From positions 1,750 to 65,749 of the forward strand of contig CAZQUN010000001.1 in the NCBI GenBank assembly GCA_964596615.1: a stretch of 64,000 nucleotides of DNA, written 5' to 3'. The DNA comes from an uncultured Candidatus Saccharibacteria bacterium. GTDB lineage: Bacteria > Patescibacteriota > Minisyncoccia > Portnoybacterales > UBA2143. The notes beneath the pieces are model-generated. The model searched no databases and was not told the origin of the DNA. It saw nothing but the letters and a program-made list of their open reading frames with translations. Each line of letters starts with the position of its first letter. The stretch's first letter is position 1. Shown here piece after piece: positions 44,613 through 62,614 of the stretch. The translations under genes were made by a program, and so were the position numbers.

Positions 44613-44661
44613 CCTTGATTTATCAAGTCAAGGTGATAGAATGAAAGAACTTGTATATAAT
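44613..44661 (+). promoter_or_regulatory. Divergent promoter region upstream of the glycan island: palindrome plus candidate -35/-10 elements
   Basis: Palindrome CCTTGATTTATCAAGTCAAGG (44613-44633). TTGATT-16-TAGAAT at 44615-44642. TTGTATATAAT (44652-44661) is an extended-minus-10-like element 11 nt before ATG 44673. Confidence 0.4.
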
Positions 44662-46891: not shown

Positions 46892-46894
46892 CTT

Positions 46895-47551
46895 ATGGAT
46901 TTTTTTAACCTAATTAAAACCAGGAGAAGCGTTAGGATTTTCCAGGACAAAGAAGTCGACCAAGAATCGATTAAAAAGATTATCGAGATGGCGACTTATG
47001 CTCCTTCAGCCTGCAACATCCAGGGCTGGAGATTCATTATCATCACCGATCAGAAGAAAAAAGAAGAAATTGTTAATTTGGGCGGCTCAGTCATTATCAA
47101 AAGCGCTCCGGTTGGCATTTTAGTCCTCTATGATAACCAAACTAAAAACACTCAATACTCCGACGATGTTCAAAGCGCTTCCGCCGCTATCCAGAATCTA
47201 CTTTTATCAGCCCATTCTTTAGGACTGGGCGCCTGCTGGATTTGTCATCTTCCTCCTAAAAATCAGTTAAGAAAACTATTTCAAATTCCAAATTCTCTAT
47301 CGCCGGTTGCGTATGTTATCCTTGGCCATAAGAAAAATGAACCAGGCCAGGTACCAAGGAAATACAACCTCAGCCAGCTTATCAGTTACAATGCTTTTTC
47401 TTCAAATGTTCCTCTGAAAAATATCAATTTTCTGAAAGTTTTCATCCTGAGAGCCCTAATGAAAACGTATTTCCTTATCCCAAAACTCATCAGGAAAAAA
47501 TGGCTGAATAAATTCGCTGATAAAAGATTTGTTAAAAAGTTCGAGAATTAA
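46895..47551 (+). CDS. Nitroreductase-family flavoprotein
   Basis: IKTRRSVRIFQDKEV...ATYAPSACNIQGWRFIII, the nitroreductase fold signature; 218 aa. Confidence 0.8.
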   Translation: MDFFNLIKTRRSVRIFQDKEVDQESIKKIIEMATYAPSACNIQGWRFIIITDQKKKEEIVNLGGSVIIKSAPVGILVLYDNQTKNTQYSDDVQSASAAIQNLLLSAHSLGLGACWICHLPPKNQLRKLFQIPNSLSPVAYVILGHKKNEPGQVPRKYNLSQLISYNAFSSNVPLKNINFLKVFILRALMKTYFLIPKLIRKKWLNKFADKRFVKKFEN

Positions 47552-47552
47552 A

Positions 47553-48278
47553 ATGAAGAATAAATTTACCATTGAACAAGTTCGAGAATTTTGGAATGAG
47601 ACCGCCCCTATTTACGAAGATTGCAACAAAAAAGTAGAAGATACCCATCATCAAAGATTTAAGGAAGCAGTCAAACACTTGAAATTAGAGTCCGGACAAA
47701 AAGTTTTAAATATCTGGGCAAGAACCGGCTTAGCTATTCCTTATCTCCGCCGAGAATGCCCTGAGATTGAAATATTTAACCTAGAGGTTTCGCCTGAGTT
47801 TATTAAAATCGCTCAAAAGAAATTCCCTAATGAAAAATTCCAGCAAACCGATTTAGACTATCTGCCTTTCGAAGACAACTATTTTGACCAAATCCTTTCT
47901 CTTGAAACCCTTGAGCACACTCCTAATCCTTCCCTTTTTCTAAAAGAACTTTTCCGAACTTTAAAGCCAGGGAAAACATTGGTAATGAGTTGTCCGCCAG
48001 CCATAACCGATATTCCTTTTAAAATCTATGGAATTATTTTCAACGACCATGGCGAGGGACCTCATAAATTCCCTTCCTCTCGAAGAGTAAAAAAACTTTT
48101 GAAAGAAACTGGTTTCAGGCTCATTCTTCACAAAGGAACCCTTCTAATTAATCTTGGTCCTCAGTGGCTAAAGGATTTTGGGGAAAGAATTATAAACAAA
48201 TTCCAAAAAACACCAATTAGTGAATTAGGCTTTAGACAATTCTATGTTGCCAAAAAAGAAAATAATTCTAACATTTGA
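47553..48278 (+). CDS. Class I SAM-dependent methyltransferase-like protein with a degenerate motif I
   Basis: Methyltransf_11-like core (DLDYLPFEDNYFDQILSLETLEH...LKPGKTLVM). Motif I reads VLNIWARTG instead of a GxGxG loop. Start set at MKNKF (47553). Confidence 0.65.
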   Translation: MKNKFTIEQVREFWNETAPIYEDCNKKVEDTHHQRFKEAVKHLKLESGQKVLNIWARTGLAIPYLRRECPEIEIFNLEVSPEFIKIAQKKFPNEKFQQTDLDYLPFEDNYFDQILSLETLEHTPNPSLFLKELFRTLKPGKTLVMSCPPAITDIPFKIYGIIFNDHGEGPHKFPSSRRVKKLLKETGFRLILHKGTLLINLGPQWLKDFGERIINKFQKTPISELGFRQFYVAKKENNSNI

Positions 48279-49014
48279 TTTAGAATTTTGGTATAACAGC
48301 AAATTCTTAAAAAAATATTTATCTCAAAATGAAGACCCACCCAACGACTATGTCAGAGAATCTGTTGAGCCAATTCTTAATCTTTTGAAACAACACAATC
48401 AAAAAGTGACTTTTTTTGTTTTGGGACAAATTGCAGAAAGACACCCGGAATTAATTAAAAAGATATTTCAATCAGGACATGAGATTGCTTCTCATGGATA
48501 TTCTCATACAATTCTATCCCAATTAGGAAAAGATGGCTTTGAAAGAGAAATTGAAAAAACCAATCAGATAATCGAACAAATCATTGGCCAAAAACCGACT
48601 GGATTCCGGGCACCCAATTTTTCTCTTAACAATAAAACTAAATGGGCTTTTGATATCCTAAAAAAGCATGGCTTTAAATACGACTCAAGCATTCATCCTT
48701 TTTCGTTTAAAAAGAATTTCCAATATTCCCTAAAAGAACTACCTCCTTCTTTGGGAGGAATATATTTCCGGGCTTTCCCCTTTTGGTTTTATCTTATTCT
48801 AGTCAGAATATTCTCTAAAACCGATTCCCCAGTTATCTACTTACATCCCCATGAATTATTCGATTCAGCCCCAAGAATAGAATCAGCCCCTCGGTTTCTA
48901 AAAAAAATCAAATACTGGGGAACCAAAAGCGCTTTAGATAAATTTGAGAAACTATTAAAAAAATTCAAGTGTATTTCAATAAAGGAACACCTTAATGAAA
49001 GTACTCCTAATTAG
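48244..49014 (+). CDS. Polysaccharide deacetylase (NodB-homology, CE4)
   Basis: TFDLEFW, HEIASHGYSH and FRAPNF motifs. Confidence 0.8.
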   Translation: MLPKKKIILTFDLEFWYNSKFLKKYLSQNEDPPNDYVRESVEPILNLLKQHNQKVTFFVLGQIAERHPELIKKIFQSGHEIASHGYSHTILSQLGKDGFEREIEKTNQIIEQIIGQKPTGFRAPNFSLNNKTKWAFDILKKHGFKYDSSIHPFSFKKNFQYSLKELPPSLGGIYFRAFPFWFYLILVRIFSKTDSPVIYLHPHELFDSAPRIESAPRFLKKIKYWGTKSALDKFEKLLKKFKCISIKEHLNESTPN

Positions 49015-50407
49015 TCCGCCTAATCTTAATACAATTTCCAGTTGCATGCCTAAGGTTCTTGAAGAAGACCTTGATTTTTTGCCGCCTCTTGGGTTAATGT
49101 ATTTGGCTGGATATTTAACCGAAAAGACATCTCATCAAGCAAGTATTCTTGATTGCCAGGTAGAACAATTAAACTACCAGGATTTAAAGGAAAGAATATC
49201 TCAGGAAAATCCAGATGTTATTGGTATCACCGCCATGACTTTTACCCTAATTGACGTGATTAAAACCGCTCAATTAGCCAAAGAAACTAATCCGGAAATC
49301 AAGATTGTTTTAGGTGGTCCCCATGTTAATATTTATCCCAAAGAAACTTTGGCAATCAATGGAATTGATTTCCTCGTTCTTGGAGAAGGAGAAGAGCCAC
49401 TTGAAAAACTACTAGATAATATTAATCAAATCGAAGAACTTCGCCAAACAAAAGGGATTGTCTTTAAAGATGGGGACGAAATCATTAATACTGGCCATCA
49501 AGAGTTAATCAGAGATTTGGATTCTATCCCTTTCCCCAAAAGAGACCTTCTTCCTTATCAGAAGTATTTTTCAATTGTTTCTTCAAAAGCGCCAGTAACA
49601 ACAATGTTTACCAGCCGGGGCTGTCCTTTTCAGTGTCTTTTCTGCGACCGGCCCCATCTGGGAAAAATCTTCCGGGCCCGTTCAGCTAAAAATGTTGTCG
49701 ATGAAATGAAGGAATGCCAAGATATGGGCATTAAAGAAATTATCATCTACGACGATACTTTTGGAGTTAACCGGCAAAGAGTTCTAGATATTTGTTCTGA
49801 AATAAGGGAAAGGAGATTAACCATTGCTTGGGATGTCAGAACCAGAGTTGATACTGTTGACGAAGAAGTTTTAAAGGCGATGAAAAGTGCCAATTGCCAG
49901 AGAATTCACTACGGGGTAGAAGCTGGAACAGAAAAAATCCTTAAAATCCTTAAAAAAGGCATCAACTTGAAACAAATTAAAAATGCCTTTAAAATGACTA
50001 AGAAGATTGGCATTGAAACGATTGGGTATTTCATGATTGGCTCTCCTCGAGAAACAAAAGAAGATATTTTGGAAACAATTAAATTAACTAAAAAATTGAA
50101 TCCTGATTTTATTCATGTCTCTATAACGACTCCTTTCCCCGCGACCGGCCTCTACTTTCTCGGTCTAGAAAATAAAATTCTTCCCTACGATTACTGGAAA
50201 GAATTTGCTCAAAACCCTAAATCTGATTTTACTCCTCTTCCCTGGGAAGAAAATCTAAAAAAAGAAGAATTATTCCACCTTTTAAAACGGACTTACCGGT
50301 CCTTTTATTTCCGACCGAGATATATTATTAAAAGATTATCAAAACTTACCTCTTGGCAAGAGTTAAAAAATAAAATTAAAGCTGCCCTAAAATTATTAAG
50401 GGTTTAA
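48995..50407 (+). CDS. Cobalamin-binding radical SAM enzyme (class B) paralog 1
   Basis: N-terminal B12-binding Rossmann domain (KVLLISPP...VIGITAM...KIVLGGPHV), then a radical-SAM domain with CPFQCLFC (CxxxCxxC); 470 aa. Confidence 0.85.
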   Translation: MKVLLISPPNLNTISSCMPKVLEEDLDFLPPLGLMYLAGYLTEKTSHQASILDCQVEQLNYQDLKERISQENPDVIGITAMTFTLIDVIKTAQLAKETNPEIKIVLGGPHVNIYPKETLAINGIDFLVLGEGEEPLEKLLDNINQIEELRQTKGIVFKDGDEIINTGHQELIRDLDSIPFPKRDLLPYQKYFSIVSSKAPVTTMFTSRGCPFQCLFCDRPHLGKIFRARSAKNVVDEMKECQDMGIKEIIIYDDTFGVNRQRVLDICSEIRERRLTIAWDVRTRVDTVDEEVLKAMKSANCQRIHYGVEAGTEKILKILKKGINLKQIKNAFKMTKKIGIETIGYFMIGSPRETKEDILETIKLTKKLNPDFIHVSITTPFPATGLYFLGLENKILPYDYWKEFAQNPKSDFTPLPWEENLKKEELFHLLKRTYRSFYFRPRYIIKRLSKLTSWQELKNKIKAALKLLRV

Positions 50408-50413
50408 CTATCT

Positions 50414-51082
50414 ATGAACAAAACTACTAAAATACATCAAAAAGAGTATTGGGAAAGAAAAGAATTGGCCAAAAGAAGATCTCCCAAGCATCCTGTTATA
50501 GCAGCTTATATTCTCCCAAAAATCAATGTGATCAGGCGCCATATTAATATAAACAAGCAAACCCGTCTTTTAGATGTTGGCTGTGGCAATGGCTTCTTCA
50601 CCTTTTATTTTGATAAAATCTGCGATGCTCACGGCGTAGATTATTCTGAAAAAATGCTGCAAATGAATCCTGTCAAAAAAAAATCCCTGATGGATGCCAA
50701 CAATCTGGAGTTTGAAGATAATTCCTTTGATGTGGTTTTTTGTCATTTCCTTCTGCACCATACCGATAATCCTGATAAAATAATTCAAGAAATGCGAAGG
50801 GTCTCTAAAAAATATGTTGTTATTCTTGAGCCAAATAGAAACAATCCTCCAGAATTTCTGTTTTCACTTATTGTCAAAGAGGAAAGAGGAGCCCTAAAAT
50901 TCTCGTTGGCCTATTTGAAAAAAATAGTCGCTAGAAATAAACTGCGAATCATAAGTTCGTTTTCGTATGGCATGATAGTTCCTAATAAAACTCCGACTTG
51001 GTTAATACCATTAACCAAGCTTTTCAACTTCAAACAACCATTCGGCATAACAAGCTTTGTTATAGCTGAAAAAAACAAATAG
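50414..51082 (+). CDS. Class I SAM-dependent methyltransferase
   Basis: Canonical motif I LLDVGCGNGFF and the post-I acidic loop; EFEDNSFDVVFCHFLLHH. Confidence 0.8.
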   Translation: MNKTTKIHQKEYWERKELAKRRSPKHPVIAAYILPKINVIRRHININKQTRLLDVGCGNGFFTFYFDKICDAHGVDYSEKMLQMNPVKKKSLMDANNLEFEDNSFDVVFCHFLLHHTDNPDKIIQEMRRVSKKYVVILEPNRNNPPEFLFSLIVKEERGALKFSLAYLKKIVARNKLRIISSFSYGMIVPNKTPTWLIPLTKLFNFKQPFGITSFVIAEKNK

Positions 51083-51084
51083 AA

Positions 51085-52533
51085 ATGAAAGTCCTATTAA
51101 TCAACCCACCATACATCAACTTTGAAGGAATGAAGGATTCTGGCGGGCATGCTATTCCTTTTAACCTGGCTTATCTAGCCGGCTATTTAAGAGATAAGAT
51201 TGACTGCCAAATTAAAATCCTCGATACAGAAGTCATGGCCCTGGACTATGACGGCATAAGAAAAGCAATTAAAAAAGAGGGGCAACAGGATGTTATTGGC
51301 TTTACCTGCCCTTCTCCGACTGTTAAACACGTCTTCAAGATATCAGAAATGATTAAAGAAGACCTAGGTTTTAATCCGGTTATTGTGGTCGGCGGAACTC
51401 ACCCGACTATCCTACCCAAAGAAATGCTTAAAAATCCCCATATTGATATTGCAGCTATCGGTGAAGGTGAGATTACTTTTTACGAAATAGTCAATGCCGT
51501 CAAAGAAAAGCGAGATGATTTTGAAAATATTAATGGGATTTACTACAAAAAGGGTGGTCAAATATTAAAGACCCCACCTCGAGATCTTATCCCTGACCTA
51601 GATGATATTCCTTTTCCAGCTCGCGATCTCTTTAATCTTAAGATGCATTACTCAGCTCCGACTAAAGTTGTTAGCTCCGAATTATCTTCGCCAATATTCA
51701 CTTCTCGAGGATGCGCCTTTGACTGCATCCATTGCGTTTCAAAAAGTGTCTGGAAGAGAAAAGTCAGGTATCGAAGCGCCAGAAATATTATCGCTGAAAT
51801 TGAAGAATGTATTAACAAACACAACATTAAAGAATTTAATATTCTTGATGAAAACTTTACCCTAAATAAGTCCAGATGCCTCGAAGTTTGCCAAGAGATC
51901 ATCAATAAAAAGCTACCAATTTACTGGGTTTGTTTTTCCAGAGCTGACACTATTGACGATGAAGTTGCTTCTATTATGGCTAAGGCCGGCTGCAGAAAGA
52001 TATCTTTCGGGCTTGAATCAGGTTCACAGAAAATATTGGATTTAATGAGAAAACAAAACACTGTTGAGCAAGGACGAAAGGCTATTGCCACAGCCAGAAA
52101 ATACGGCATCCAGCCTCACGCCAGTTTTATGTTCGGCAACATCGGCGAAACCAAAGAAACCATTAGGGAAACGATTGATTATGCTAAAAGCTTAGATCTT
52201 GATATTTCAACGTTTTTTATCACTTGTCCTGTCCCCGGTTCCGATCTCTACTATTACGCCAAGGACAATGGCTTTATCCCCGAAGGCACCCCTTGGGAAA
52301 TGTTTGCTCCTTTGACTGATAGAGAACCAATCCCGGTCCAAAGAAATCTTAGCCAGGAAGAACTAGTTTATTGGCAAAAAAAAGCTTTTCGAGAATTTTA
52401 TCTTCGCCCAAAATATGTTATCCAGCGACTAAAACAGCTTAAATCCAAAAACGCTCTTAAGATTACTTTGGCTGGCTTTAAGGTTTTGCTAAGAATCTTT
52501 TTTAAGCCAAAACCAAAAAATGATCAAAGATAA
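51085..52533 (+). CDS. Cobalamin-binding radical SAM enzyme (class B) paralog 2
   Basis: B12-binding domain (KVLLINPP...VIGFTC...VIVVGGTHPT), then CAFDCIHC; 482 aa. Confidence 0.85.
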   Translation: MKVLLINPPYINFEGMKDSGGHAIPFNLAYLAGYLRDKIDCQIKILDTEVMALDYDGIRKAIKKEGQQDVIGFTCPSPTVKHVFKISEMIKEDLGFNPVIVVGGTHPTILPKEMLKNPHIDIAAIGEGEITFYEIVNAVKEKRDDFENINGIYYKKGGQILKTPPRDLIPDLDDIPFPARDLFNLKMHYSAPTKVVSSELSSPIFTSRGCAFDCIHCVSKSVWKRKVRYRSARNIIAEIEECINKHNIKEFNILDENFTLNKSRCLEVCQEIINKKLPIYWVCFSRADTIDDEVASIMAKAGCRKISFGLESGSQKILDLMRKQNTVEQGRKAIATARKYGIQPHASFMFGNIGETKETIRETIDYAKSLDLDISTFFITCPVPGSDLYYYAKDNGFIPEGTPWEMFAPLTDREPIPVQRNLSQEELVYWQKKAFREFYLRPKYVIQRLKQLKSKNALKITLAGFKVLLRIFFKPKPKNDQR

Positions 52534-53530
52534 ATTAATTTCATCAATATTTAAAAGGTCTAATTTTGGCAAGCTTTCTGACCTAATTGAAAAGAGCTTC
52601 TTTTTAAAAATCCCGTACAAGCTGATTAGCCAAAAAATGATCTCGTATGATTTTCCTGTTCATCTTTTTATCGAAACAACCAACGCCTGTAATCTCAAAT
52701 GCCAGTTTTGTGCCCGAACCGATAAAAAGTTCGAAATTGGCAGCATGGATTTTAATCTGTTCAAAAAGATAATTAACGAGGCCAAAGAATATGGACCAAG
52801 AACCTTTTCTCTTCATCTTTTCGGAGAACCGCTTTTAACCAAGAATATCTTTGAAATGATTGAATATATTAAGAAAGCTAATCAGAGCAATACTGTTTTT
52901 CTGACAACTAACGGAACCTTGCTTAACAAAGAAAACGCCAAGTCAATAATCAAAACTTCTGTTGACCGCCTTTCAATTAGCTTTCCCAGTGTTAAAAAAG
53001 AAAGCTATCAAAGAATTGCCGGTTTTGACCAATTAGAAAAAGTGGAAGAAAATATTAATGGTCTGATTGAATTAAAAAAAGAAAAAAAAGTCAATCACCC
53101 CCTTATTTATCTCCGAATGGTTTTAAACAAGGATAACTTTGACGAAAAGAAAATTTTTGAAAAGAAATGGAAGAATAAGCCTGTTATTTCAGAAATCAGA
53201 GACGCTCATAATTTCGGTGGTTATTCTAAAGAATTCTCCCTTAGGAAAGGGCAAACTAAAAAAATCAAAAGATATCCCTGTTATCATCTTTGGTTTTCAC
53301 CGGCTATTCATTTCAACGGTGACTTTTCCATCTGTTGTGATGACTGGGGCAAAAAAACTGTTTTAGGAAACGTCAAAAACCAAACCATTAATCAAATTTG
53401 GAATTCAAAAAAAATTAACCAATACCGCCAGGCTCACATGAGAGGCAAATATGATAAGGTCCCTCTTTGTCAAGGATGCGATGTTTGGACAATGTATCAA
53501 GACATTTTCTTTGACTGGCAAAAAAAATGA
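52520..53530 (+). CDS. Radical SAM protein with a C-terminal SPASM/twitch-type auxiliary cluster domain
   Basis: CNLKCQFC near the N-terminus; C-terminal Cys-rich region (CYHLW...ICCDDWG...CQGCDVW); 336 aa. Confidence 0.8.
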   Translation: MIKDKLISSIFKRSNFGKLSDLIEKSFFLKIPYKLISQKMISYDFPVHLFIETTNACNLKCQFCARTDKKFEIGSMDFNLFKKIINEAKEYGPRTFSLHLFGEPLLTKNIFEMIEYIKKANQSNTVFLTTNGTLLNKENAKSIIKTSVDRLSISFPSVKKESYQRIAGFDQLEKVEENINGLIELKKEKKVNHPLIYLRMVLNKDNFDEKKIFEKKWKNKPVISEIRDAHNFGGYSKEFSLRKGQTKKIKRYPCYHLWFSPAIHFNGDFSICCDDWGKKTVLGNVKNQTINQIWNSKKINQYRQAHMRGKYDKVPLCQGCDVWTMYQDIFFDWQKK

Positions 53531-54192
53531 AACTATTAACCCAAGAAGATTTAAAACCATTAGTTCAGGCCGACCCAAATCAGATGATATATTCCATCGA
53601 TAGCTATTTCAAGCCAATCAGAAAAATTCTTTTTCGGAAAAGATTAAAAATGGTTTTAAAATTAATGGGAAACAAAGAATATCAGAACTTCTTGGATATT
53701 GGCCTTGGTAGCGGCATATTTCTTCCGGAATTATCCAGTCGAACCAAAAAACTAACTGCCACTGATACTCACAAAAACATTGAAGTCGTTAAAAATATTA
53801 TTAACTCAAAAAATATTTCGGCCAATCTGTTGAAAGCCGATGTTCGTCAAATGCCTTTTGAAGATAATAGTTTTGATGGTATTCTCTGTTTAAGTGTCTT
53901 AGAATTTGTTTCAGATATTAATCAGGCCATTAAGGAAATTAAAAGGGTTGCCAGGCCAAAAGCCAAAATTATCATTGGCATCCCAGTTTTTAACCCAATC
54001 ACCGACCTTTGTTACAAAATGATTGGATACAAGAAATATGCCGACTCTTTTCATAAATCAAATCACCAGATAATTATCAAAGCGATTAAAGAAAACCTCT
54101 CGATTAAAAAAATCAAAACTTATCCCTTTTTTTTGCCAGTTAATTTATCTCTCTTTGTTGCCCTGGAAGCAACTAAAGTTGATTTTAATTAG
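53527..54192 (+). CDS. Class I SAM-dependent methyltransferase
   Basis: Motif I FLDIGLGSG; PFEDNSFDGILCLSVLEF. Confidence 0.75.
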   Translation: MKLLTQEDLKPLVQADPNQMIYSIDSYFKPIRKILFRKRLKMVLKLMGNKEYQNFLDIGLGSGIFLPELSSRTKKLTATDTHKNIEVVKNIINSKNISANLLKADVRQMPFEDNSFDGILCLSVLEFVSDINQAIKEIKRVARPKAKIIIGIPVFNPITDLCYKMIGYKKYADSFHKSNHQIIIKAIKENLSIKKIKTYPFFLPVNLSLFVALEATKVDFN

Positions 54193-54213
54193 AAATCATT
54201 GTATAAATAAATT

Positions 54214-55083
54214 ATGGAAAAAAAGTTTTCAATCATTATCCCCCTATACAACGAGGGAGAATCTATCGAGCAAGTAATTGCTGATATCAGGAAACACTTG
54301 CCAGAAAATAGCTACGATTATGAAATTGTGGTTGTTAATGATGGTTCAACTGATAATAGCCAGGAGGTATTGAATAAAATAGATAACATTAAAATTATTA
54401 AATCCCCGGAAAACAAAGGTTATGGCGCATCAATTAAAAAAGGTATTAGTCAATCCGAAAGAGAATATATTGCCATCATAGATGCTGATGGAACCTATCC
54501 AGTCAAGGCCATGCCAGAATTAATCAAATACGCTAAGGATTATGATATGGTTTCTGGCCTTAGACGAGGTAAAAACCTAGACCAACGCTGGCTCTATTCC
54601 CAAAGAATAGGAAAGATGATCTTAAAGAAATTGGCTGGCTATGTAACTAAGACCGAAATCCCGGATATAAACTGCGGCTTAAGAATTTTTAGAAAAGATA
54701 TTGCTCAGCAGTTCTGGGGTCTTTATCCGGATGGATTCTCTTTTACGACAACTTCGCTAGTTGCTTTTATTTCCAACGGCTATCAGATTAAATTCATCCC
54801 GATTGAGTACCACAAGCGAATTGGCAAATCTACTCTTAAGCCGATGCGGAGCTTTACCGCCTTTGTTAATTTAATCTTAAAAATCAGTCTATTCTTTAAG
54901 CCAATCCGAGTTTTTCTACCAGCCAGTTTAATAATTCTTTTCTTTGCTGTTGGAATTACCGTCTATGGTATTTATTCTAAAGATGTTTTTTATGACACAA
55001 CCTTAATTCTTCTCTCGGCCATAGCTCTTCAAACATTTTTCTTTGGTCTTTTGGCAGAAATAATTGTTCATAATCGAAAATAA
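54214..55083 (+). CDS. GT2 glycosyltransferase, polyprenyl-phosphate sugar synthase type (paralog of 46031-46891)
   Basis: FSIIIPLYNEGESI, VVNDGSTD, DADGTY, C-terminal TM helices. Collinear with the first GT2. Confidence 0.8.
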   Translation: MEKKFSIIIPLYNEGESIEQVIADIRKHLPENSYDYEIVVVNDGSTDNSQEVLNKIDNIKIIKSPENKGYGASIKKGISQSEREYIAIIDADGTYPVKAMPELIKYAKDYDMVSGLRRGKNLDQRWLYSQRIGKMILKKLAGYVTKTEIPDINCGLRIFRKDIAQQFWGLYPDGFSFTTTSLVAFISNGYQIKFIPIEYHKRIGKSTLKPMRSFTAFVNLILKISLFFKPIRVFLPASLIILFFAVGITVYGIYSKDVFYDTTLILLSAIALQTFFFGLLAEIIVHNRK

Positions 55084-56501
55084 TGAGAATTCTTCTTATT
55101 AACCCCAGTTTGCATCAAGTTGCGACTGGACAATATGAAAAAGATGTTGAAAAAGAAAGGGGCGTTTATCCGCCTCTTGGTTTGTTATACATCGCTTCTA
55201 TTTTAGAAAAGCATAATCACCAAGTTGTTTTAATTGATATTGATATTGAAGGAAAAGAAGCAGAAAACAGGATTAAAAGTGCCTACCAGGAACTCAATCC
55301 TGAAATGGTTGGCTTTTACGCAACAACCTGGGGCTATGCCCAAGCCAAAGATTTAGCCGAAAGGTTCAAACAGCTTAATCCTGAAATCATTACCGTCATT
55401 GGCGGACCAAATGTAACTTCCCTTCCCCGGGAATCACTCCAGCTAGGAAACTTTGACTTCGGAGTCATGAGCGAAGGAGAGGAAACAATTATTGAGCTAA
55501 TTGAGAAATTAGAAGGAAAAAAGAATTTAGAATTTGAACAAATCCTTGGTCTGGTCTTTAAAAAAGACGATCAGATTGTTATCAATCCTCCCCGACCTTT
55601 AATTGAGGATATGGACTCAATTCCTTTCCCAGCCCGACACCTTATTCCAGCCAAAAAATATTTTGATGTTTTTTCAAGAAACAAGCACTTTATTACAATT
55701 ATGGCAACAAGAGGATGTCCTTTTAATTGTCTTTTCTGTGACAGGAAAAACCGATTGGGCAGAAAATGGCGGGTCCGTTCTCCGGAAAATATCGCCCGGG
55801 AAATTAGACAAGTTATCAACGATTACGGCATCAGAGAATTCATGTTTTTTGACGACGACTTTATTGTCGACAAAAATTGGGGAACGAAGGTCTGTCAGGA
55901 ATTAAAACCTTTAAATATCATTTGGGAATGTCGTAACAGGGTTGATATGCTTGATGAAGAAATGCTTAAAGCCATGAAAGAAGCTGGCTGTTACCGAGTT
56001 CGCCTTGGATTTGAATCAGGCGATAACCATGTTTTAAGGGTCTTAAAAAAAGGCATTACTGCTGAACAATCCCTGGCCTGCGCTAAGCTCTGCCAGAAAA
56101 TTGGCATTGAGGTTTTCGGTTACTTCATGATGGGCCTGCCTGAAGAAACTCCTCAGGCAATTAAAAGAACAATTGATTTAGCTTTAAAAATTGACCCGAG
56201 CTTTGCCATTTTTAGTAAAACCAGGATTCCTCCTGCTAGCGATCTTTTTGACTATGCTGTCAGAACCAATCAAATCAAAAAAGACCACTGGCAAAAATAT
56301 TTAGCTGAAGAAGAATCAAACGGAGCCCCAGCCCTTTCAACCAAAGAATTATCAGAAGAGATGGTTAATCAGTATCTTAAAAAGGCCATCAGAAAATTTT
56401 ACTTTCGCCCGGGATATATTATTAAAAGAATTTTATCGGTTAAAAGTTTTCGTCATTTAATCAGCCAAGCCAGGATTGGCTTCGCTCTTCTATTCAAATG
56501 A
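55083..56501 (+). CDS. Cobalamin-binding radical SAM enzyme (class B) paralog 3
   Basis: B12-binding domain (RILLINPS...MVGFYATT...VIGGPNVT), then CPFNCLFC; 472 aa. Confidence 0.85.
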   Translation: MRILLINPSLHQVATGQYEKDVEKERGVYPPLGLLYIASILEKHNHQVVLIDIDIEGKEAENRIKSAYQELNPEMVGFYATTWGYAQAKDLAERFKQLNPEIITVIGGPNVTSLPRESLQLGNFDFGVMSEGEETIIELIEKLEGKKNLEFEQILGLVFKKDDQIVINPPRPLIEDMDSIPFPARHLIPAKKYFDVFSRNKHFITIMATRGCPFNCLFCDRKNRLGRKWRVRSPENIAREIRQVINDYGIREFMFFDDDFIVDKNWGTKVCQELKPLNIIWECRNRVDMLDEEMLKAMKEAGCYRVRLGFESGDNHVLRVLKKGITAEQSLACAKLCQKIGIEVFGYFMMGLPEETPQAIKRTIDLALKIDPSFAIFSKTRIPPASDLFDYAVRTNQIKKDHWQKYLAEEESNGAPALSTKELSEEMVNQYLKKAIRKFYFRPGYIIKRILSVKSFRHLISQARIGFALLFK

Positions 56502-57451
56502 AAATCCTAAAAGAATTTTCTCGGCACTGGTATATCATTATCGGCATTCTAATCTTTCTCTATATTGTTTTCTACAAGATAAATTTAAGGGAAGTTTTTA
56601 GCATACTCGCTCAGGCCAATCCATATTCCATCCTCTTGGCTGCCTTTTTTACGATTTTAATGATTACCCTTCAGCCAATTAGGTGGAATTACTTAAAAAG
56701 AATTCAGGATATTAAGTATTCTCATAAGGATTCTTTTTTAATTTATAACGCTGGATTTTTCTTTTCATCAATTACTCCTGGAAGAGTTGGTGACTTTATT
56801 AAAGTTTTTTATTTGAAAAAAGATGGTCATTCAATCGGAAAGTCAATGGTTAGTATTACGATCGATAGAGTGGCTGATGTTCTTTTTCTTTTTCTCCTCG
56901 GATATTTTAGTCTCCTTTTCTTCTTTCCCTCTTTTCGAAAAGAAATTATTCTTCTAACCTTTCTTTCTCTAATTATCTTGGGAATCTTTGTCTTTTTCAG
57001 AAAAAACGGGCTTTTAAAAATCCTTTTTAACAGGGTTTCCAAGATAATAATTCCATCTAAATATCAAAAATCCTGGCATTTGAATTACCAGGATTTCATT
57101 AATGGCCTAAAGGAGTATCGATTCAAAAATTATTTTATCCTTCTTCTTTTCACCATTCTTAACTGGTTTTTCTATTATACCTCGATGTATTTTCTGGCTA
57201 AAAGCATTAATTTGGACAATATTCCTCTTTTTTACTTCGTCGGCTCGGTTGCCTTAGCTGCTTTAGCAGTCCTGATTCCAATTTCAATTTTTGGACTAGG
57301 AACCAGAGATGCAACTCTTCTGTTTTTCTTTTCTGCTGTTGGCATCAGTCCGGAGAAAACAATTGGCTTTTCAACTCTCTTTCTTTTGATTCTCCTGATG
57401 GCAACCCTAATTGGTTTTCTGGCCTGGTTGAAAAAACCATTAAAGTTTTAA
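56498..57451 (+). CDS. Polytopic membrane protein, flippase-like (UPF0104 / lysyl-PG-synthase TM-region family)
   Basis: 317 aa, ~8 TM helices, PGRVGDF motif. This family is usually found next to GT2 genes. Confidence 0.5.
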   Translation: MKILKEFSRHWYIIIGILIFLYIVFYKINLREVFSILAQANPYSILLAAFFTILMITLQPIRWNYLKRIQDIKYSHKDSFLIYNAGFFFSSITPGRVGDFIKVFYLKKDGHSIGKSMVSITIDRVADVLFLFLLGYFSLLFFFPSFRKEIILLTFLSLIILGIFVFFRKNGLLKILFNRVSKIIIPSKYQKSWHLNYQDFINGLKEYRFKNYFILLLFTILNWFFYYTSMYFLAKSINLDNIPLFYFVGSVALAALAVLIPISIFGLGTRDATLLFFFSAVGISPEKTIGFSTLFLLILLMATLIGFLAWLKKPLKF

Positions 57452-58504
57452 GAAATTCTTTATCAAAATCGGCCAATTAGAAGGATTGTTGACTAAACTG
57501 CTTTGAATTGCGTTCTCAAAAGTACAAGCGCATTTCTTATCCTTAATATATTTTAAAGTTTTCCTAGCCCTTTCGGTTGAAAGGACTTTTTTAATATCAT
57601 AATTAAAATCTTTTAAATTGCCGAAATCAGCATCGAGAATTTCACAAGGCCTGACCAGGCCATCTTCTGAAATGACGACCATTTCCTTTCCAGCCGAACA
57701 AACGTGTTTTCTTTTTCCTGTTCTAAGAAATCCTTCAATAATTTCCCTGGTTGCCATCTTATTCGCCGCCATAAGCCGGGAAAAAGCAAAGCCAGAACTA
57801 AAATTTTCTTTTTCCTTATTAACCATATCAGCAATCTGATGATAATCTTTATCAGAAAGATTACTAGTCCCGACCTCTCTAACACTTCCTCTTGCCCAGG
57901 AAAAATTAAAATCAGCCAAAGGCATTTCATTTCTGACAAAATTCATTACTTCCTTAACTTTGGTGTAGTTTTTGGTTGAAACCGTCATGTTAATCAGTAT
58001 TTCAAAGTCCTTAACGTTCTTTTTTAATTCAACCAGATTTCTGTAATTAACAACTACTTTTTCAAAACAGCCTTCCACTCTTCTGATCTTATTATGATCT
58101 TTGCCCAGGCCATCAAGAGAGAGACAAAGCTTTAAATATGGGTGCTTGGTTGTTTTAAGGATTTCTTCAACCATATCCTTTACCTTATCGACTAAAATAG
58201 AGTTAGTTGGAATGCTGATAAATTGAACTTTATTATTTCTGTCAAAAATTCGGGCGATTTCGGGCAAATCATTTCTTAAGGTCGGCTCGCCGCCAGTTAA
58301 AGTAACATATTCCAATTGGCCGAAAGATTTGGAAATCCTTTCAATTTCATCCAAAGATAATTCCTTATTAATAGCGGCCTGATCAATTTCTTTCCAATAA
58401 AAGCACATTGCGCAACGAGCATTGCACCGGGCAGTGGTAAAGAAAATGATGTAGGTTGGTGTTTTAGAGAATAAGTTTCTAAAACCCTTTAAGTATTTAT
58501 TCAT
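57440..58504 (-). CDS. Radical SAM protein with a C-terminal SPASM/twitch-type domain (second copy, opposite strand)
   Basis: CNARCAMC near the N-terminus; C-terminal CSAGKEMVVISEDGLVRPC...CACTFENA Cys cluster; 354 aa. Its 3' end overlaps the convergent gene by 12 nt. Confidence 0.8.
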   Translation of the reverse strand: MNKYLKGFRNLFSKTPTYIIFFTTARCNARCAMCFYWKEIDQAAINKELSLDEIERISKSFGQLEYVTLTGGEPTLRNDLPEIARIFDRNNKVQFISIPTNSILVDKVKDMVEEILKTTKHPYLKLCLSLDGLGKDHNKIRRVEGCFEKVVVNYRNLVELKKNVKDFEILINMTVSTKNYTKVKEVMNFVRNEMPLADFNFSWARGSVREVGTSNLSDKDYHQIADMVNKEKENFSSGFAFSRLMAANKMATREIIEGFLRTGKRKHVCSAGKEMVVISEDGLVRPCEILDADFGNLKDFNYDIKKVLSTERARKTLKYIKDKKCACTFENAIQSSLVNNPSNWPILIKNFLKL

Positions 58505-59468
58505 CTTTTTTGAAAGGATAGAAGATTAATGAAAATCCTGCTCCCAAGGCAGTCAAAAAGCAAAAATATAAATCGAGAATAAAGAAAGGGAAAATTAAGT
58601 GAATTCTTCTTTCCTTAATTAGAAACCAATAAAATCCGTAGTTATACAAAAGATAAACAAGAAAAAATGAAAGAAGAAGATAGAAAAAAGAAGGAAGAAA
58701 AACCAAAACAAGGATTAAAGGAAAAATCATTGCCCCGATTAAAGTTTTAATCCCTCTTTCTTTGGTTGAATAAACCGGATCAAATTTCTTTCTTTTGATA
58801 AAAAGACGGATCCATTGCCAGCTTCTTTTTAGTGTTTTCTTTGTCAATTGTCTGAAGGTCTCAAAATGATGACCGACCAAAATATTCCTGGCGATATATA
58901 TTTTAATATTTTCCTTGGCCAAACGATAGCCAAATTCAAAATCCTCAACATCAGCCCCTTTGTATTTTTGATCAAAATATCCGAATCTATCAAAGATATT
59001 TCTTTTAACGGCTGAACGCTCGGTAGTAAAAGATGTCTGGTATTCTCCTGGCTGACTCCAAAGATAATATTTGTAATAGGCGATATACAATGGAGTTAAT
59101 CCTTTGTTCAGAGGAGTCTTATCTTTGACCATAATAATTCCATCGATTTCCGGTTTTTCCAAGAAAATTTCATTTAATTCCGAAAGGGCATTATTCTCTT
59201 TAAAAGTGACATCCGAGTCAACAAAGACAACGATTTCTCCTTGGGCTTTTTTAATGCCGACGTTTCTGGCTCCGGCTGGACCCAAATTCTTTTCCAAAAC
59301 AATCTGTTTAGCATTGTATTGATTAATAATTTCTTCGGTTTTATCAGTTGAAGCATCGTTGATTAGAATAACCTCAAAATCAGAAAAGTTCTGCCTCTTC
59401 ACAGAATCTAAACACTTTCCTATTGTTTTTTCAGCATTGTAAGCCGGGATAACAATTGAGAATTTCAT
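58497..59468 (-). CDS. GT2 glycosyltransferase with a C-terminal TM anchor
   Basis: FSIVIPAYNAEKTI, ILINDASTD, FVDSDV (DxD) and a C-terminal hydrophobic domain. Confidence 0.75.
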   Translation of the reverse strand: MKFSIVIPAYNAEKTIGKCLDSVKRQNFSDFEVILINDASTDKTEEIINQYNAKQIVLEKNLGPAGARNVGIKKAQGEIVVFVDSDVTFKENNALSELNEIFLEKPEIDGIIMVKDKTPLNKGLTPLYIAYYKYYLWSQPGEYQTSFTTERSAVKRNIFDRFGYFDQKYKGADVEDFEFGYRLAKENIKIYIARNILVGHHFETFRQLTKKTLKRSWQWIRLFIKRKKFDPVYSTKERGIKTLIGAMIFPLILVLVFLPSFFYLLLSFFLVYLLYNYGFYWFLIKERRIHLIFPFFILDLYFCFLTALGAGFSLIFYPFKKDE

Positions 59469-59469
59469 A

Positions 59470-61188
59470 TTACCTGATTAGATTTAAAAACCAGCTTTTA
59501 GTTTGAGAGGTTTCCGGCAAGGAGACCTCAATATTATCGGAAGCAATATTTTCAACCCGAGAATTATTTAAAATCTCTTTGGTTAATTCAGGAGAGTAGC
59601 CAAGAACATATTTAACATTGAACTTATCAAAAGCAGGCTGAAGATTTTTCTGCTCAATTAGCTTTTCTATTGTTTTGGGCGCGAAAATGACAATTGATTT
59701 TTCAGTCTGGTAAGCTATTTTCTCCCACTGAGTCCCTGGTATACCAGGGCTGCTTAAGGCAATAATTTCTTCATCTTTAATCTTAAATTTCTTTATTTCC
59801 CTAACATGGGTATCAGCAGCCAAATATTCTTCGTTGTCATAGATTCTCCCCCACAAGACATGATTACTTAGAACCAGATTGTACAAAACCAACAGAATCA
59901 ACAGGGCTCCCATTATTCTCTTTCCATTATCTCCCATTCGAAAATACTGGGATAGAATATTGATCAAGAATAATAAGCCGAGAGCAATGACCAAAGCAAT
60001 CCCCCAACTAAAATCCATCAAATGATTGCGGGTTCCCATGTAGACATAGGAAGCAAAAAACAGAAAGAAGACGATCCAAAAAACAAAAAACCAATATAAA
60101 TAACTGTGTTCTCTTTTCAAAAATAAAAATCCAAAGATAAAAAGCAGAAAAATAAATGGTCCGCCAATATCCTCAATGGCAAAGAAACGAAAACTATGCC
60201 TTAAGAAATTAACTGTTCCAACCTTTAATCTTCCCACCAACCCCGGACTTTTAAAAGCCTGGGTGGCAGATACTTTGATTGCTTCTATCTCTTCGAACAT
60301 TCCCAAGTCAGGAGAAACGACACTTAGCCTTAGATCGTTTAGAAAGTTCTCTCGGTCAAAATGATAGGTATAAGGGTCTGGGAAAATATGATGATAGAGA
60401 AAAAAATCGAAAAAATCAGTTCTTTCTTCAATATCGGCCTTAAGAGGTTGCGCATAATAATCTTTGCCAGAAAATATCTCTGGCAGCCAGAAAAGAGAAA
60501 CAATGATAATAAATGGAATAAAAGTATAAATTAGGCACTTTTTTTCTTTTCTGAACAACAGATAAAGAAAAAAGGCAGGGGCAGCTGTGAACATTGCCTC
60601 CTTGGCTATGCCAGTTAGAGCTAAAAAAATACCTGATAGAAAGATTAAAAAATATCTGTATTTAAATTCTGATTTCAGTCCGATAAAGAATAATAGTGAG
60701 AATAAAGAAAAGAAAAGAAGGCAAATTTCATAAGTTCCGAAATTATAAACAATATAATACCAATTAAAAGGCAAAAGAACATAGACAAGAGAAAAAAGAG
60801 CGGCTATTTTAAAATCAAAAAGATAATAAACTACAATAGTGAAAATAATTAAAGTCAAAACCAGAATAGCTATTGAAACAAAAATCAAATTATTGTATTC
60901 GGGTAAACCAGTAATCCTAAAAATCTGAGCCAGGACAACAGAAGTCAGCTTATTACCAACAATAGAATTCTGCGCCTGTTCTTTGACTAAAGAGGGCGCC
61001 AGAATAATATTAAGACTATTTTCTGTTCCATAGATGCCTTCTTGAAAGTAATTCCGAGCCAATAATAAAGAACCGCGCGAAACCGTAGCTGAATAACCCT
61101 TGAACATTGTTGGGGCATACCAGACCGAAACAGCAAAAACAGCAACCCCAGCCAAAAGAATAATGAATTTTAATTTTTCTTTAGACAT
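59470..61188 (-). CDS. Large polytopic membrane protein, GT-C-fold glycosyltransferase-like (ArnT/PMT/oligosaccharyltransferase-like); tentative
   Basis: 572 aa, at least 11 predicted TM helices and a C-terminal soluble domain. Sits beside polyprenyl-P-sugar synthases. No diagnostic motif confirmed. Confidence 0.4.
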   Translation of the reverse strand: MSKEKLKFIILLAGVAVFAVSVWYAPTMFKGYSATVSRGSLLLARNYFQEGIYGTENSLNIILAPSLVKEQAQNSIVGNKLTSVVLAQIFRITGLPEYNNLIFVSIAILVLTLIIFTIVVYYLFDFKIAALFSLVYVLLPFNWYYIVYNFGTYEICLLFFSLFSLLFFIGLKSEFKYRYFLIFLSGIFLALTGIAKEAMFTAAPAFFLYLLFRKEKKCLIYTFIPFIIIVSLFWLPEIFSGKDYYAQPLKADIEERTDFFDFFLYHHIFPDPYTYHFDRENFLNDLRLSVVSPDLGMFEEIEAIKVSATQAFKSPGLVGRLKVGTVNFLRHSFRFFAIEDIGGPFIFLLFIFGFLFLKREHSYLYWFFVFWIVFFLFFASYVYMGTRNHLMDFSWGIALVIALGLLFLINILSQYFRMGDNGKRIMGALLILLVLYNLVLSNHVLWGRIYDNEEYLAADTHVREIKKFKIKDEEIIALSSPGIPGTQWEKIAYQTEKSIVIFAPKTIEKLIEQKNLQPAFDKFNVKYVLGYSPELTKEILNNSRVENIASDNIEVSLPETSQTKSWFLNLIR

Positions 61189-62614
61189 TTTTTTTCTTTT
61201 TTCTTAAACTAACCTGATTACTAAAGAGCCAATAACTGAAAGCATCTTTAATTGAAGGTCGATAAAACCAAAAGGTCTGCCAGGCAAAAAACGAAGAATG
61301 AACAGTTTCAAAAAATATATTTCTTTTAAGCTTTATCAGCCGTCTAACAATTGGTTCTAGAAAATATATCTTTGAAAGGAGAGGAATAAAGAAAAGTAAA
61401 TTTTCCAATTCCTCTTTATTCTCTAGGTTAAAAGGAGAATAATATTGGCTATTTAAATCCATCTGATTTGGATCATAATCTTCATCCAGATATCCCTTTT
61501 CCTTAGCGTAATCTAAAAGATGAGTTCCTGGAAAGGGCTGGGCAAATCCAATCGCAACAAGATCTGCCTTAATCTTACTATTAATCTGAGCAGTCTTAAA
61601 TCCATCATCAATTGACTCTCCCGGCAAGCACATCATATTAAAGGTTTTTAATTTCAATCCCTTGCTTTTAATAATCTTGGAGGCTCTGATAATATCATCA
61701 TCCGAAACATTTTTTTTCAAAATCTCATTTCGCAAACGCTCGTTGCCGGTTTCAATACCCATAGTTACCCCCCTGCAACCAGCGCTTTTTAAAAGATCAA
61801 CAGTGCTCTCATCAATTAAATCAGCTCTTACCTGGGCAATAAACTCTAGATTAATTTTCTCTTTGTACTTCCGAGAGAATTCTTTTAGCCAATCTTTCTT
61901 CAGAATAAAGGTATCATCTGAGAAATATATTCTCTTCAGACCATAATTATCTCTAACCATTGATATTTCCTCTATCAAACTATCAACGCTTCGTAATCTG
62001 GTGTATTTGCCTTTTCCAGCATAAAGATTCTTGTAAGCCTGGTTAACACAGAAAATGCAATCAAAAGGGCATCCCCGGCCGGCAATAAAATTCTTAACAA
62101 TGCTTTTTCTAAGATAATCATACTTTTTGTAATAGAGATCCCTATCAGGCAAAGGCAAGGCATTCAAATCTTCAATTAATGGCCTTAATGGATTTTTAAT
62201 AATTCTATCTCCTTCTTTTATCCAAATGTTTTCTATTCTTTTAATATCTTCTTTTCTTTCCATTTTTTCCACTAATTCCAAGAGAGCCTCTTCTCCTTCA
62301 CCGATACAAATCATATCAATTCCGTCCTGATTTAAAACATTAGGAGAAAAAGTCGGATGAGGGCCACCCATAATAATTGGGATATCAAATCTTTTTTTAA
62401 TTATTCTGGCCTTTTCCAAGGCCCAGTTATGAATTGTTGTTGTACAGGAAAATCCTATCAAATCGGGCTTAATCTGCCCTATTTCTTCAATCAAATCTTG
62501 ATTGTTTGAAGGAACAATAAGGGAGGCCTCGAAGCCAGCCTTTTTCAAAACACTTGAAAGATGCATTAGCCCAAAAGAGACAAACCCCGAATAACTGACA
62601 AAGAGAATTTTCAT
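61181..62614 (-). CDS. Cobalamin-binding radical SAM enzyme (class B) paralog 4
   Basis: B12-binding domain (KILFVSYSG...LIGFSC...IIMGGPHPT), then CPFDCIFC. Start set at MKILFV (62614). Confidence 0.8.
   Translation of the reverse strand: MKILFVSYSGFVSFGLMHLSSVLKKAGFEASLIVPSNNQDLIEEIGQIKPDLIGFSCTTTIHNWALEKARIIKKRFDIPIIMGGPHPTFSPNVLNQDGIDMICIGEGEEALLELVEKMERKEDIKRIENIWIKEGDRIIKNPLRPLIEDLNALPLPDRDLYYKKYDYLRKSIVKNFIAGRGCPFDCIFCVNQAYKNLYAGKGKYTRLRSVDSLIEEISMVRDNYGLKRIYFSDDTFILKKDWLKEFSRKYKEKINLEFIAQVRADLIDESTVDLLKSAGCRGVTMGIETGNERLRNEILKKNVSDDDIIRASKIIKSKGLKLKTFNMMCLPGESIDDGFKTAQINSKIKADLVAIGFAQPFPGTHLLDYAKEKGYLDEDYDPNQMDLNSQYYSPFNLENKEELENLLFFIPLLSKIYFLEPIVRRLIKLKRNIFFETVHSSFFAWQTFWFYRPSIKDAFSYWLFSNQVSLRKKKKNV

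Follow-up and report, generated by a model that had tools for sequence, protein, structure and literature searches.

Two twitch-type radical SAM enzymes of an uncultured Patescibacteria bacterium probably act on a lipid-linked sugar

What do radical S-adenosylmethionine (SAM) enzymes of the SPASM/twitch kind act upon, when neither a precursor peptide nor a sulfatase lies near their genes? The question is raised by two genes, called here P1 and P2, carried by an uncultured Candidatus Saccharibacteria bacterium (Patescibacteriota, Portnoybacterales) on a 64-kb stretch of contig CAZQUN010000001.1 (positions 1,750 to 65,749; assembly GCA_964596615.1), hereafter the window. Both open reading frames (ORFs) occur exactly where a preliminary description had placed them (Table 1), among glycosyltransferase and methyltransferase genes, as it had also reported. 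The answer which we favour, with moderate confidence, is that P1 and P2 tailor a sugar linked to a membrane lipid, within a three-component surface-glycosylation pathway of a bacterium of the candidate phyla radiation (CPR, or Patescibacteria).

Both proteins carry an N-terminal CxxxCxxC motif, as first described (C57/C61/C64 in P1; C27/C31/C34 in P2, which has in addition an invariant GGE motif), score above the gathering threshold of the Pfam Radical_SAM model (PF04055, cutoff 29.5 bits; 68.2 bits and 1.3e-18 for P1, 64.8 bits and 1.5e-17 for P2), and have predicted folds matching radical SAM structures. The assignment of the C-terminal domain had to be narrowed. SPASM domains conform to the pattern CX9-15GX4C-gap-CX2CX5CX3C-gap-C and host two auxiliary clusters, twitch domains being a truncated form with a single cluster (PMC6231123, PMC9012708). 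An auxiliary-cluster domain is indeed present in both proteins, but it is not a full SPASM domain, as the seven-cysteine motif is absent both from P1, which has five C-terminal cysteines (C254, C272, C273, C317 and C320), and from P2, which has four conserved ones. P1 reads C254-X12-G-X4-C272, then C317-X2-C320; P2 reads C269-X12-G-X4-C287-X37-C325-X-C327. Since the CX5CX3C part is missing in both, P1 and P2 are classified as twitch enzymes, each with one predicted auxiliary cluster. The Pfam SPASM model still matches, clearing its cutoff of 21.5 bits in P1 (52.1 bits, 7.9e-14) and falling just below it in P2 (20.9 bits), because the model also spans the twitch part. In alignments with 40 homologs, the eight cysteines of P1 (8/8) are invariant; in P2, C34, C269, C287 and C327 are invariant, C27, C31 and C325 are conserved in at least 90% of the sequences, and C127 and C146 are not conserved. 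Cysteine conservation of this degree far exceeds what chance would give. The AlphaFold (AF2) models, with mean confidence scores (pLDDT) of 92.3 for P1 and 92.9 for P2, show in both twitch regions a hairpin followed by a helix. The two proteins are only 23% identical over the core, and thus are not recent paralogs.

The nearest characterised relative of P1 is BtrN, the 2-deoxy-scyllo-inosamine dehydrogenase of the butirosin pathway (PDB 4M7S/4M7T), a twitch enzyme which acts on a small carbohydrate-derived substrate, and needs no peptide. Comparisons of sequence, profile and predicted fold all ranked BtrN first for P1. A phmmer search against all PDB sequences aligned both the core and the C-terminal domain (E 1.7e-16); the P1 family profile matched BtrN at 3.6e-25, the next hit being CteB at 9e-10; and Foldseek ranked BtrN (4m7t) first among PDB structures (E 5e-16, TM-score 0.76-0.80 normalised on BtrN). 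CteB and SuiB are lower-ranked Foldseek matches, and EpeE (C223A structures) and anSME, the anaerobic sulfatase-maturating enzyme, are also found among the fold matches. The auxiliary cluster of BtrN has four cysteine ligands (PMC10337720, PMC9012708). In an ungapped HMMER alignment C272, C317 and C320 of P1 coincide with C187, C232 and C235 of BtrN, and C254 lies at the spacing of the first ligand, so that the four-cysteine ligation pattern is found in P1. The likeness extends to an aspartate located two residues past a ligand cysteine (D190 in BtrN, D275 in P1), and to an arginine in the following helix (R218 and R303, respectively). For the numbering of BtrN ligands beyond what the alignment shows, we presume that of Goldman et al. 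2013 to hold.

P1 also departs from BtrN. Identity is about 20% only, and BtrN lacks both the conserved N-terminal extension of P1, made of 45 residues forming three short helices, and its conserved C-terminal tail. Moreover, BtrN has Phe188 at the position of Cys273 of P1. The genomic settings are different, an aminoglycoside cluster for BtrN and a lipid-linked glycan cassette for P1, and neither orthology nor a common pathway links the two.

Cys273, the residue flanking the predicted ligand C272, deserves attention. P1 has 628 close homologs, named in databases by generic terms such as 'radical SAM/SPASM domain-containing protein', and its wider family consists of 4,564 clusters at 50% identity (E <= 1e-30). 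Residues were counted in 137 of the best representatives of these clusters, aligned to the P1 profile. The four ligand positions (C254/C272/C317/C320) are kept in 136 of the 137 sequences, C273 in 119, being replaced elsewhere by S, N, P or V; D275 and R303 are highly conserved as well. The pattern fits the presence of four predicted cluster ligands, plus one putatively functional cysteine, C273, not engaged as a ligand. Twitch-type epimerases such as NeoN, HygY and the peptide epimerase EpeE/YydG similarly feature one non-ligand cysteine which gives a hydrogen atom. Cys249 is named as the hydrogen-atom donor of NeoN in PMC10991966, and a paper cited there states in its title that mutating the cysteine of HygY unmasks a dehydrogenase activity. 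The extra cysteine of P1 is highly but not universally conserved; by analogy, P1 may be an epimerase instead of, or besides, a dehydrogenase, and the presence or absence of the second cysteine of the CCxD motif may separate epimerases from dehydrogenases within the family.

P2 is of a different make. The best match of its family profile is the sactisynthase SkfB (PDB 6EFN), at 2.5e-16, with the cysteines preceding and following the hairpin aligned. SkfB is the best Foldseek match, too, in a list including MoaA, anSME, SuiB and BlsE; the TM-scores of these matches are about 0.55-0.65. The twitch ligands of SkfB are arranged as CX33CXC (PMC6231123); P2 correspondingly has CX37CXC, with cysteines before and after the beta-hairpin and the C-terminal CXC. 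The C-terminal cysteines thus align with twitch ligands in both proteins, with those of BtrN in P1 and those of SkfB in P2, and the failure to align which had been named at the outset as a refutation did not occur. SkfB differs in having an N-terminal RiPP recognition element (RRE; RiPPs are ribosomally synthesised and post-translationally modified peptides) and a precursor, SkfA. P2 has neither, and resides next to a family 2 glycosyltransferase (GT2) and a putative glycosyltransferase of the GT-C fold.

The absence of a peptide or sulfatase partner, claimed earlier, held on closer inspection. No small precursor ORF flanks P1 or P2, and the gaps separating genes in the island which hosts them are 21 nt long at most. 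The alternative put forward along with that claim, an unannotated precursor gene, found no support: there is no intergenic room for it, no conserved small ORF, and no RRE or PqqD-like domain. Free ORFs of 18-110 residues were searched in all six frames in the window island and in 16 related loci, and only three sets were common to loci, a family of ferredoxins (65-69 residues), their antisense ORF, and a chance pair of 19 residues. RRE or PqqD-like domains gave no Pfam match in P1, P2 or their neighbours. The CxxxCxxC motif of P2 begins at residue 27, and the 26 residues which precede it leave no room for an RRE; the extension of P1 spans 45 residues, versus about 90 for an RRE. Genes for PqqD-like proteins, leader peptidases or exporters are missing from the cassettes. 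Similarly, no ORF of the window contains the PROSITE sulfatase signature (PS00523). The sorting by subfamily models which had been advised assigned neither enzyme: none of the NCBIfam PqqE, AlbA, MftC, anSME-type, MoaA, HpnH, Tes, AhbD and NirJ models reached its cutoff with P1 or P2, and anSME models do not appear among the best 25 NCBIfam matches of either. P1 scored 127 bits at best, against a cutoff of 380, and P2 71 bits, against one of 306; individual models gave 58.5 versus 225 for HpnH, 60-84 versus 231-325 for MoaA, and 51 versus 381 for PqqE.

The island (44673-63909, about 19 kb) is compact, as most genes abut or overlap. The end of B12_b, a cobalamin (B12)-binding radical SAM gene, overlaps the start of P1 by 14 nt, the stop of P1 is overlapped by the methyltransferase gene MT_c, and P2 is overlapped by 8 nt by the gene of a membrane-anchored GT2, GT2_mem. 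Seven radical SAM genes are present, P1, P2 and five B12-binding ones which the preliminary description had not mentioned, and the seven ORFs of the window with a CxxxCxxC motif all map within 15 kb of it (48995-63909). HpnJ was the best NCBIfam match of four of the five B12 enzymes, the remaining one matching BchE first and HpnJ next, all scores being far below cutoff. A promoter-like site (44633-44661) precedes the glycosylphosphotransferase gene, which opens the operon on the plus strand; B12_e, B12_d, Mem572, GT2_mem and P2 form a convergent operon on the minus strand. The flippase-like gene and P2 converge, with 3' ends overlapping by 12 nt (57440-57451), which leaves the two operons no space for an intervening terminator. 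Five B12-binding, class-B radical SAM enzymes are a striking outlay for a CPR organism with a small genome, for which cobalamin synthesis is probably out of reach; no riboswitch was matched by Rfam models upstream of the B12 enzymes.

At the level of families, the three components of a polyprenyl-phosphate glycosylation system are found: membrane GT2s, a flippase-like protein matching TIGR00374, and, in Mem572, a member of a family with PMT_2 (GT-C) matches. The two GT2s encoded on the plus strand have full-length matches to AglJ, DPM, ArnC and PpgS models. Searched directly, by sequence or profile, Mem572 itself matched nothing in Pfam, NCBIfam or the PDB; when its homologs were scanned singly, nine of the 23 full-length members matched PMT_2, the best at 3.4e-10. 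The protein has about 11 hydrophobic segments followed by a C-terminal soluble part. A Mem572 paralog, P0245, 54% identical, is recorded on the same 163-kb source contig, and the genome may hold two copies of the GT-C-like gene, or of the entire cassette.

Table 1. Genes of the island hosting P1 and P2. Positions refer to the window.
Feature	Position	Strand	Remarks
Polyprenyl glycosylphosphotransferase (Bac_transf), first gene of the plus-strand operon	44673-46031	+	Pfam 1.5e-60; TIGR03025 355 bits, above cutoff
GT2, polyprenyl-phosphate sugar synthase type (AglJ/DPM/ArnC/PpgS-like)	46031-46891	+	2 C-terminal transmembrane helices
Nitroreductase-family flavoprotein, conserved cassette member	46895-47551	+	
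MT_a, class I SAM methyltransferase, conserved cassette member	47529-48278	+	
Polysaccharide deacetylase (Polysacc_deac_1) with DUF3473, XrtA-system deacetylase-like	48244-49014	+	
B12_a, B12-binding radical SAM, most conserved partner of P1	48995-50407	+	
MT_b, class I SAM methyltransferase	50414-51082	+	
B12_b, B12-binding radical SAM enzyme	51085-52533	+	
P1, BtrN-like twitch radical SAM enzyme	52520-53530	+	336 aa; Pfam, BtrN matches, AF2/Foldseek, invariant Cys
MT_c, class I SAM methyltransferase, conserved directly downstream of P1	53527-54192	+	
Second GT2, polyprenyl-phosphate sugar synthase type	54214-55083	+	2 C-terminal transmembrane helices
B12_c, B12-binding radical SAM	55083-56501	+	best NCBIfam HpnJ 246 bits (cutoff 578)
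Flippase-like membrane protein (LPG_synthase_TM)	56498-57451	+	TIGR00374 above cutoff; weak HpnL match
P2, twitch radical SAM enzyme, SkfB-like twitch	57440-58504	-	354 aa; Pfam, SkfB profile match, AF2/Foldseek, conserved Cys
GT2_mem, membrane-anchored GT2, conserved neighbour of P2 in other phyla	58497-59468	-	
Mem572, 572-aa polytopic membrane protein, divergent GT-C (PMT_2-like) candidate	59470-61188	-	
B12_d, B12-binding radical SAM	61181-62662	-	
B12_e, B12-binding radical SAM, listed TTG start likely internal	62611-63909	-	

The cassette surrounding P1 is not a peculiarity of this contig. It was found in more than 15 loci, mostly labelled as Patescibacteria, in which P1 orthologs are 45-54% identical to P1. 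B12_a is a near-universal member (53-66% identity), the DPM-like GT2, the nitroreductase, MT_a, the deacetylase, the flippase-like protein and MT_c are usually present, and Mem572 lies downstream in convergent orientation. In one locus (L003, 7611-10004) the B12_a ortholog and the LPG_synthase_TM flippase-like protein make one continuous ORF of 797 residues, which implies that the membrane is the site of the radical SAM chemistry. In another (L017, 5-1672) a complete P1 homolog follows in frame on the C-terminal part of B12_b, and the junction lacks a methionine. The B12_b::P1 fusion is an apparent one, either true or due to an assembly frameshift, and the ORF is cut by the contig end. Taken together, the two fusions suggest that P1 acts jointly with the B12 enzymes at the membrane, and that their substrate is lipid-anchored. 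P2 is located outside the usual P1 cassette, and has a company of its own. In five other loci sampled, from Portnoybacteria, Omnitrophota, an unclassified bacterium, a Nanoarchaeota (DPANN) archaeon and a metagenome-assembled genome labelled 'Proteobacteria', P2 homologs occur with a GT2 of about 320 residues, either adjacent or within one gene, and with a membrane/GT-C protein of 510-870 residues (PMT_2 or STT3). A sugar or lipid substrate, proposed in the preliminary description, is accordingly favoured for both enzymes, P1 being nearest to BtrN, and both genes residing in conserved cassettes for glycans or lipid-linked sugars.

Some cassettes host additional genes. In L001 (13432-15987) and L014 (11996-12205) a small ferredoxin gene, then genes for a NifS-like cysteine desulfurase, NifU and an FNR-like flavoprotein, are found directly past the cassette, and look like a dedicated supply of electrons and Fe-S clusters for the radical SAM enzymes. 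Divergent P1-like twitch paralogs (89-125 bits to P1) were spotted in L012 (3519-4559), L026 (3452-4474) and L014 (15023-15973). In L012 and L026 the paralog is directly upstream of a GT2 gene, in L026 following a phosphoglycosyl transferase gene; in L014 it has a methyltransferase gene on one side and a B12-radical SAM gene on the other. A distant P1 homolog (30% identity) resides in Pseudoalteromonas ardens (L043, 4515-16852), in the midst of genes for transketolase subunits, an APH kinase, a Zn-dependent alcohol dehydrogenase, an FkbM methyltransferase, an aminoglycoside-3-N-acetyltransferase-like protein, a GFO/IDH/MocA oxidoreductase and a DegT aminotransferase. Judging from its gene content, this cluster could possibly encode an aminosugar or aminocyclitol pathway, consistent with BtrN-like chemistry in the wider family. 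The neighbours of distant P1 homologs in Azospirillum (TrkH, BrkB, FabI-like) were uninformative on function.

Two kinds of known systems resemble the cassette. The ArnC/ArnD/ArnEF/ArnT, GtrB/GtrA/GT-C and CsbB/GtcA/YfhO systems are built on a like plan, with a membrane GT2 to make the polyprenyl-phosphate sugar, a small flippase to carry it over, and a GT-C enzyme to transfer it outside the cell. The Arn pathway also includes a deacetylase-family enzyme which tailors the sugar on its lipid. Three-component polyprenyl-phosphate glycosylation is reviewed in PMC11127046, PMC7389260 and PMC12690121. In contrast to these systems, the candidate flippase of the island belongs to LPG_synthase_TM, not to GtrA or ArnEF, and up to seven radical SAM enzymes are inserted in the island, a feature not known from any described three-component system. 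The hpnI/J/K/L module is similar in combining a GT2 and a deacetylase with a B12-type radical SAM enzyme and an LPG_synthase_TM-like membrane protein. HpnI, HpnK and HpnJ (GT2, deacetylase and B12-type radical SAM enzyme, respectively) convert lipid-linked N-acetylglucosamine into the cyclitol ether of bacteriohopanetetrol, and the calditol synthase Cds is a second precedent of a radical SAM enzyme acting on a lipid-linked sugar (PMC13459092). The differences are manifest. The island proteins score far below the cutoffs of the Hpn families, there is no squalene-hopene cyclase context, the GT2s of the island resemble polyprenyl-phosphate sugar synthases, and the hpn module has no BtrN-like enzyme. 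The deacetylase family of the island (Polysacc_deac_1/DUF3473) is, we assume, also other than that of HpnK.

According to the favoured reading, for which we infer the substrate, the order of the steps, the types of reaction and the acceptor, the DPM/ArnC-like GT2 would load a sugar onto polyprenyl phosphate at the cytoplasmic face of the membrane. The sugar is probably an N-acetyl-hexosamine, because a deacetylase is part of the cassette. At the same face the deacetylase, the B12-radical SAM enzymes, the methyltransferases, the nitroreductase-like flavoprotein and P1 would remodel the lipid-linked sugar, which the flippase-like protein would carry across the membrane, and the PMT_2-like Mem572 would pass to a surface acceptor. 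In the step assigned to P1, a 5'-deoxyadenosyl radical would take a hydrogen from a carbinol carbon of a sugar or cyclitol. As a dehydrogenase, P1 would turn the substrate radical into a ketone via a fully cysteine-ligated auxiliary cluster, as BtrN does; as an epimerase, the radical would be quenched from the opposite face by Cys273, as in NeoN, HygY and EpeE. P2, a separate twitch enzyme tied to the pair of GT2_mem and the GT-C protein, would act on the lipid-linked product of GT2_mem. Epimerisation, dehydrogenation and C-C bond formation are all candidate reactions.

A bolder version, which we regard as doubtful, is that the cassette is an anaerobic radical-SAM route, by which a polyprenyl-phosphate-linked aminosugar is rebuilt into an unusual head group, before flipping and attachment to the surface. 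The head group could be a carbocyclic cyclitol, by comparison with hopanoid cyclitol ethers and calditol, or a sugar multiply C-methylated, oxidised or epimerised.

Several observations weigh against the tailoring of a lipid-linked sugar by P1 and P2. No aminotransferase or nucleoside-diphosphate-sugar pathway gene was found in the window island, and the identity of the sugar is therefore a guess. Neither P1 nor P2 reaches the cutoff of any NCBIfam equivalog, the identity of P1 to BtrN is about 20%, and the nearest structure to P2, SkfB, modifies peptides. Similar SPASM/twitch sequences may have unrelated functions, and similarity networks are not predictive of function in this group (PMC6231123). 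Finally, P1 and P2 occur together only in the window among the loci sampled, and one shared pathway is not required.

Among competing explanations, the one which survives best, above all as regards P2, though we rate it unlikely, holds that P1, P2 or both modify not the sugar but the isoprenoid or lipid part, the polyprenyl carrier or some other membrane lipid, either by adding 5'-deoxyadenosyl to a double bond, as HpnH does, or by joining chains through C-C bonds, as Tes/GDGT-MAS. P2 has weak NCBIfam matches to HpnH (58.5 bits) and Tes (55 bits), and a PDB sequence match to GDGT-MAS; a lipid-linked substrate is anyway to be expected, given the fusion to a membrane protein in L003, and in the same locus a radical SAM gene at the equivalent place beside P1 weakly matches DUF3463, presumably the C-terminal domain of HpnH. 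The HpnH and Tes matches, however, cover the generic radical SAM core only, and are far below the cutoffs of 225 and 450 bits, and P2 shares only 24% identity with the L003 protein. P2 follows a GT2 and a GT-C protein across phyla, which points to a glycan, and the specific likeness of P1 is to a cyclitol dehydrogenase.

This last feature could be turned into a different argument. BtrN being the nearest characterised relative of P1, and the Pseudoalteromonas homolog residing with APH kinase, N-acetyltransferase, GFO/IDH/MocA oxidoreductase and DegT aminotransferase genes, the island might make a diffusible product akin to aminocyclitols or aminoglycosides, with P1 as a tailoring enzyme of the BtrN/NeoN/HygY type. 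We deem this improbable, because the cassette opens with a polyprenyl glycosylphosphotransferase, and includes two membrane-anchored polyprenyl-phosphate GT2s along with flippase-like and GT-C-like proteins; 2-deoxy-scyllo-inosose synthase, inositol dehydrogenase and aminotransferase genes are all missing from the island, and the cassette is a conserved core chromosomal cluster in many Patescibacteria with small genomes.

Still poorer are the prospects of P1 and P2 as protein maturases, whether anSME-like enzymes forming formylglycine, factors for the maturation of metalloenzymes or cofactors, or modifiers of a glycoprotein acceptor. The top NCBIfam matches of P1 do include a 'tungsten cofactor oxidoreductase radical SAM maturase' and a 'metalloenzyme maturase' family, but cover the N-terminal core only (127 versus 380 bits), and a partner oxidoreductase is lacking; the fold matches of both proteins include anSME, but its seven-cysteine motif is absent from P1 and P2, and the window is devoid of sulfatase signatures. 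A candidate acceptor, a protein of 594 residues encoded next to the island, in divergent orientation (42801-44585, minus strand), has an N-terminal hydrophobic, signal-like segment and no Pfam match; as it adjoins the cassette in one close relative only (L011, 45% identity), it was rejected as a conserved substrate. The RiPP maturase, with a precursor unannotated, elsewhere, or embedded in a larger gene, is the least credible of all and largely refuted, since the facts that SPASM/twitch enzymes often are RiPP maturases, that P2 best matches a sactisynthase in structure and profile, and that CteB and SuiB also match P1, at lower rank, are outweighed by gaps of 21 nt at most, by the lack of a shared small ORF beyond those listed above, and by the absence of an RRE from P1 and P2 and of a PqqD-like protein, leader peptidase or ABC exporter from the cassette.

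A few features of the window are worth recording. The true start of B12_e is probably beyond the window end, and the counterpart in the gene table of locus L007 is 467 residues long, and runs past the end of that locus. Outside the island the window is ordinary chromosome, with genes for MurB, SecA, SecDF, MreB, tRNA synthetases and RpoA. The names of homologs, too, assign the bacterium to Patescibacteria. Two full-length MreB paralogs and an FtsA/MreB-like protein (6165-7220, 15356-16363 and 26153-27424) are encoded near MurA-like and GT4 genes. The segment 29524-32560 (minus strand) encodes a VirD4/TrwB-like coupling ATPase with a treble-clef zinc finger, then a protein of 459 residues with no family match; the two are possibly part of a DNA-uptake or secretion apparatus.

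The tailoring of sugars by twitch radical SAM enzymes is already known in kind, and nothing in the tailoring of a lipid-linked sugar by P1 and P2 contradicts current understanding; the setting is a three-component cassette rich in radical SAM enzymes and typical of CPR bacteria, of which no description was found in the open-access literature searched. The case cautions against a default labelling of SPASM/twitch enzymes as RiPP maturases. The P1 family is a large uncharacterised group of BtrN-like enzymes with a diagnostic CCxD motif, to which P. ardens, being cultivable, could give experimental entry. If the bolder version set out above is true, P1 would be the first known dehydrogenase or epimerase of the BtrN type acting on a lipid-linked sugar in primary envelope biosynthesis, and would be part of a membrane complex including B12-radical SAM enzymes and the flippase-like protein, a grouping which the two fusions suggest. 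CPR bacteria have tiny genomes, depend on hosts, and have a cell-surface chemistry which is almost unknown. That as many as seven radical SAM enzymes, including five of the cobalamin type, are devoted to what is seemingly one lipid-linked sugar suggests that the surface glycan is unusual, and relevant to their lifestyle.

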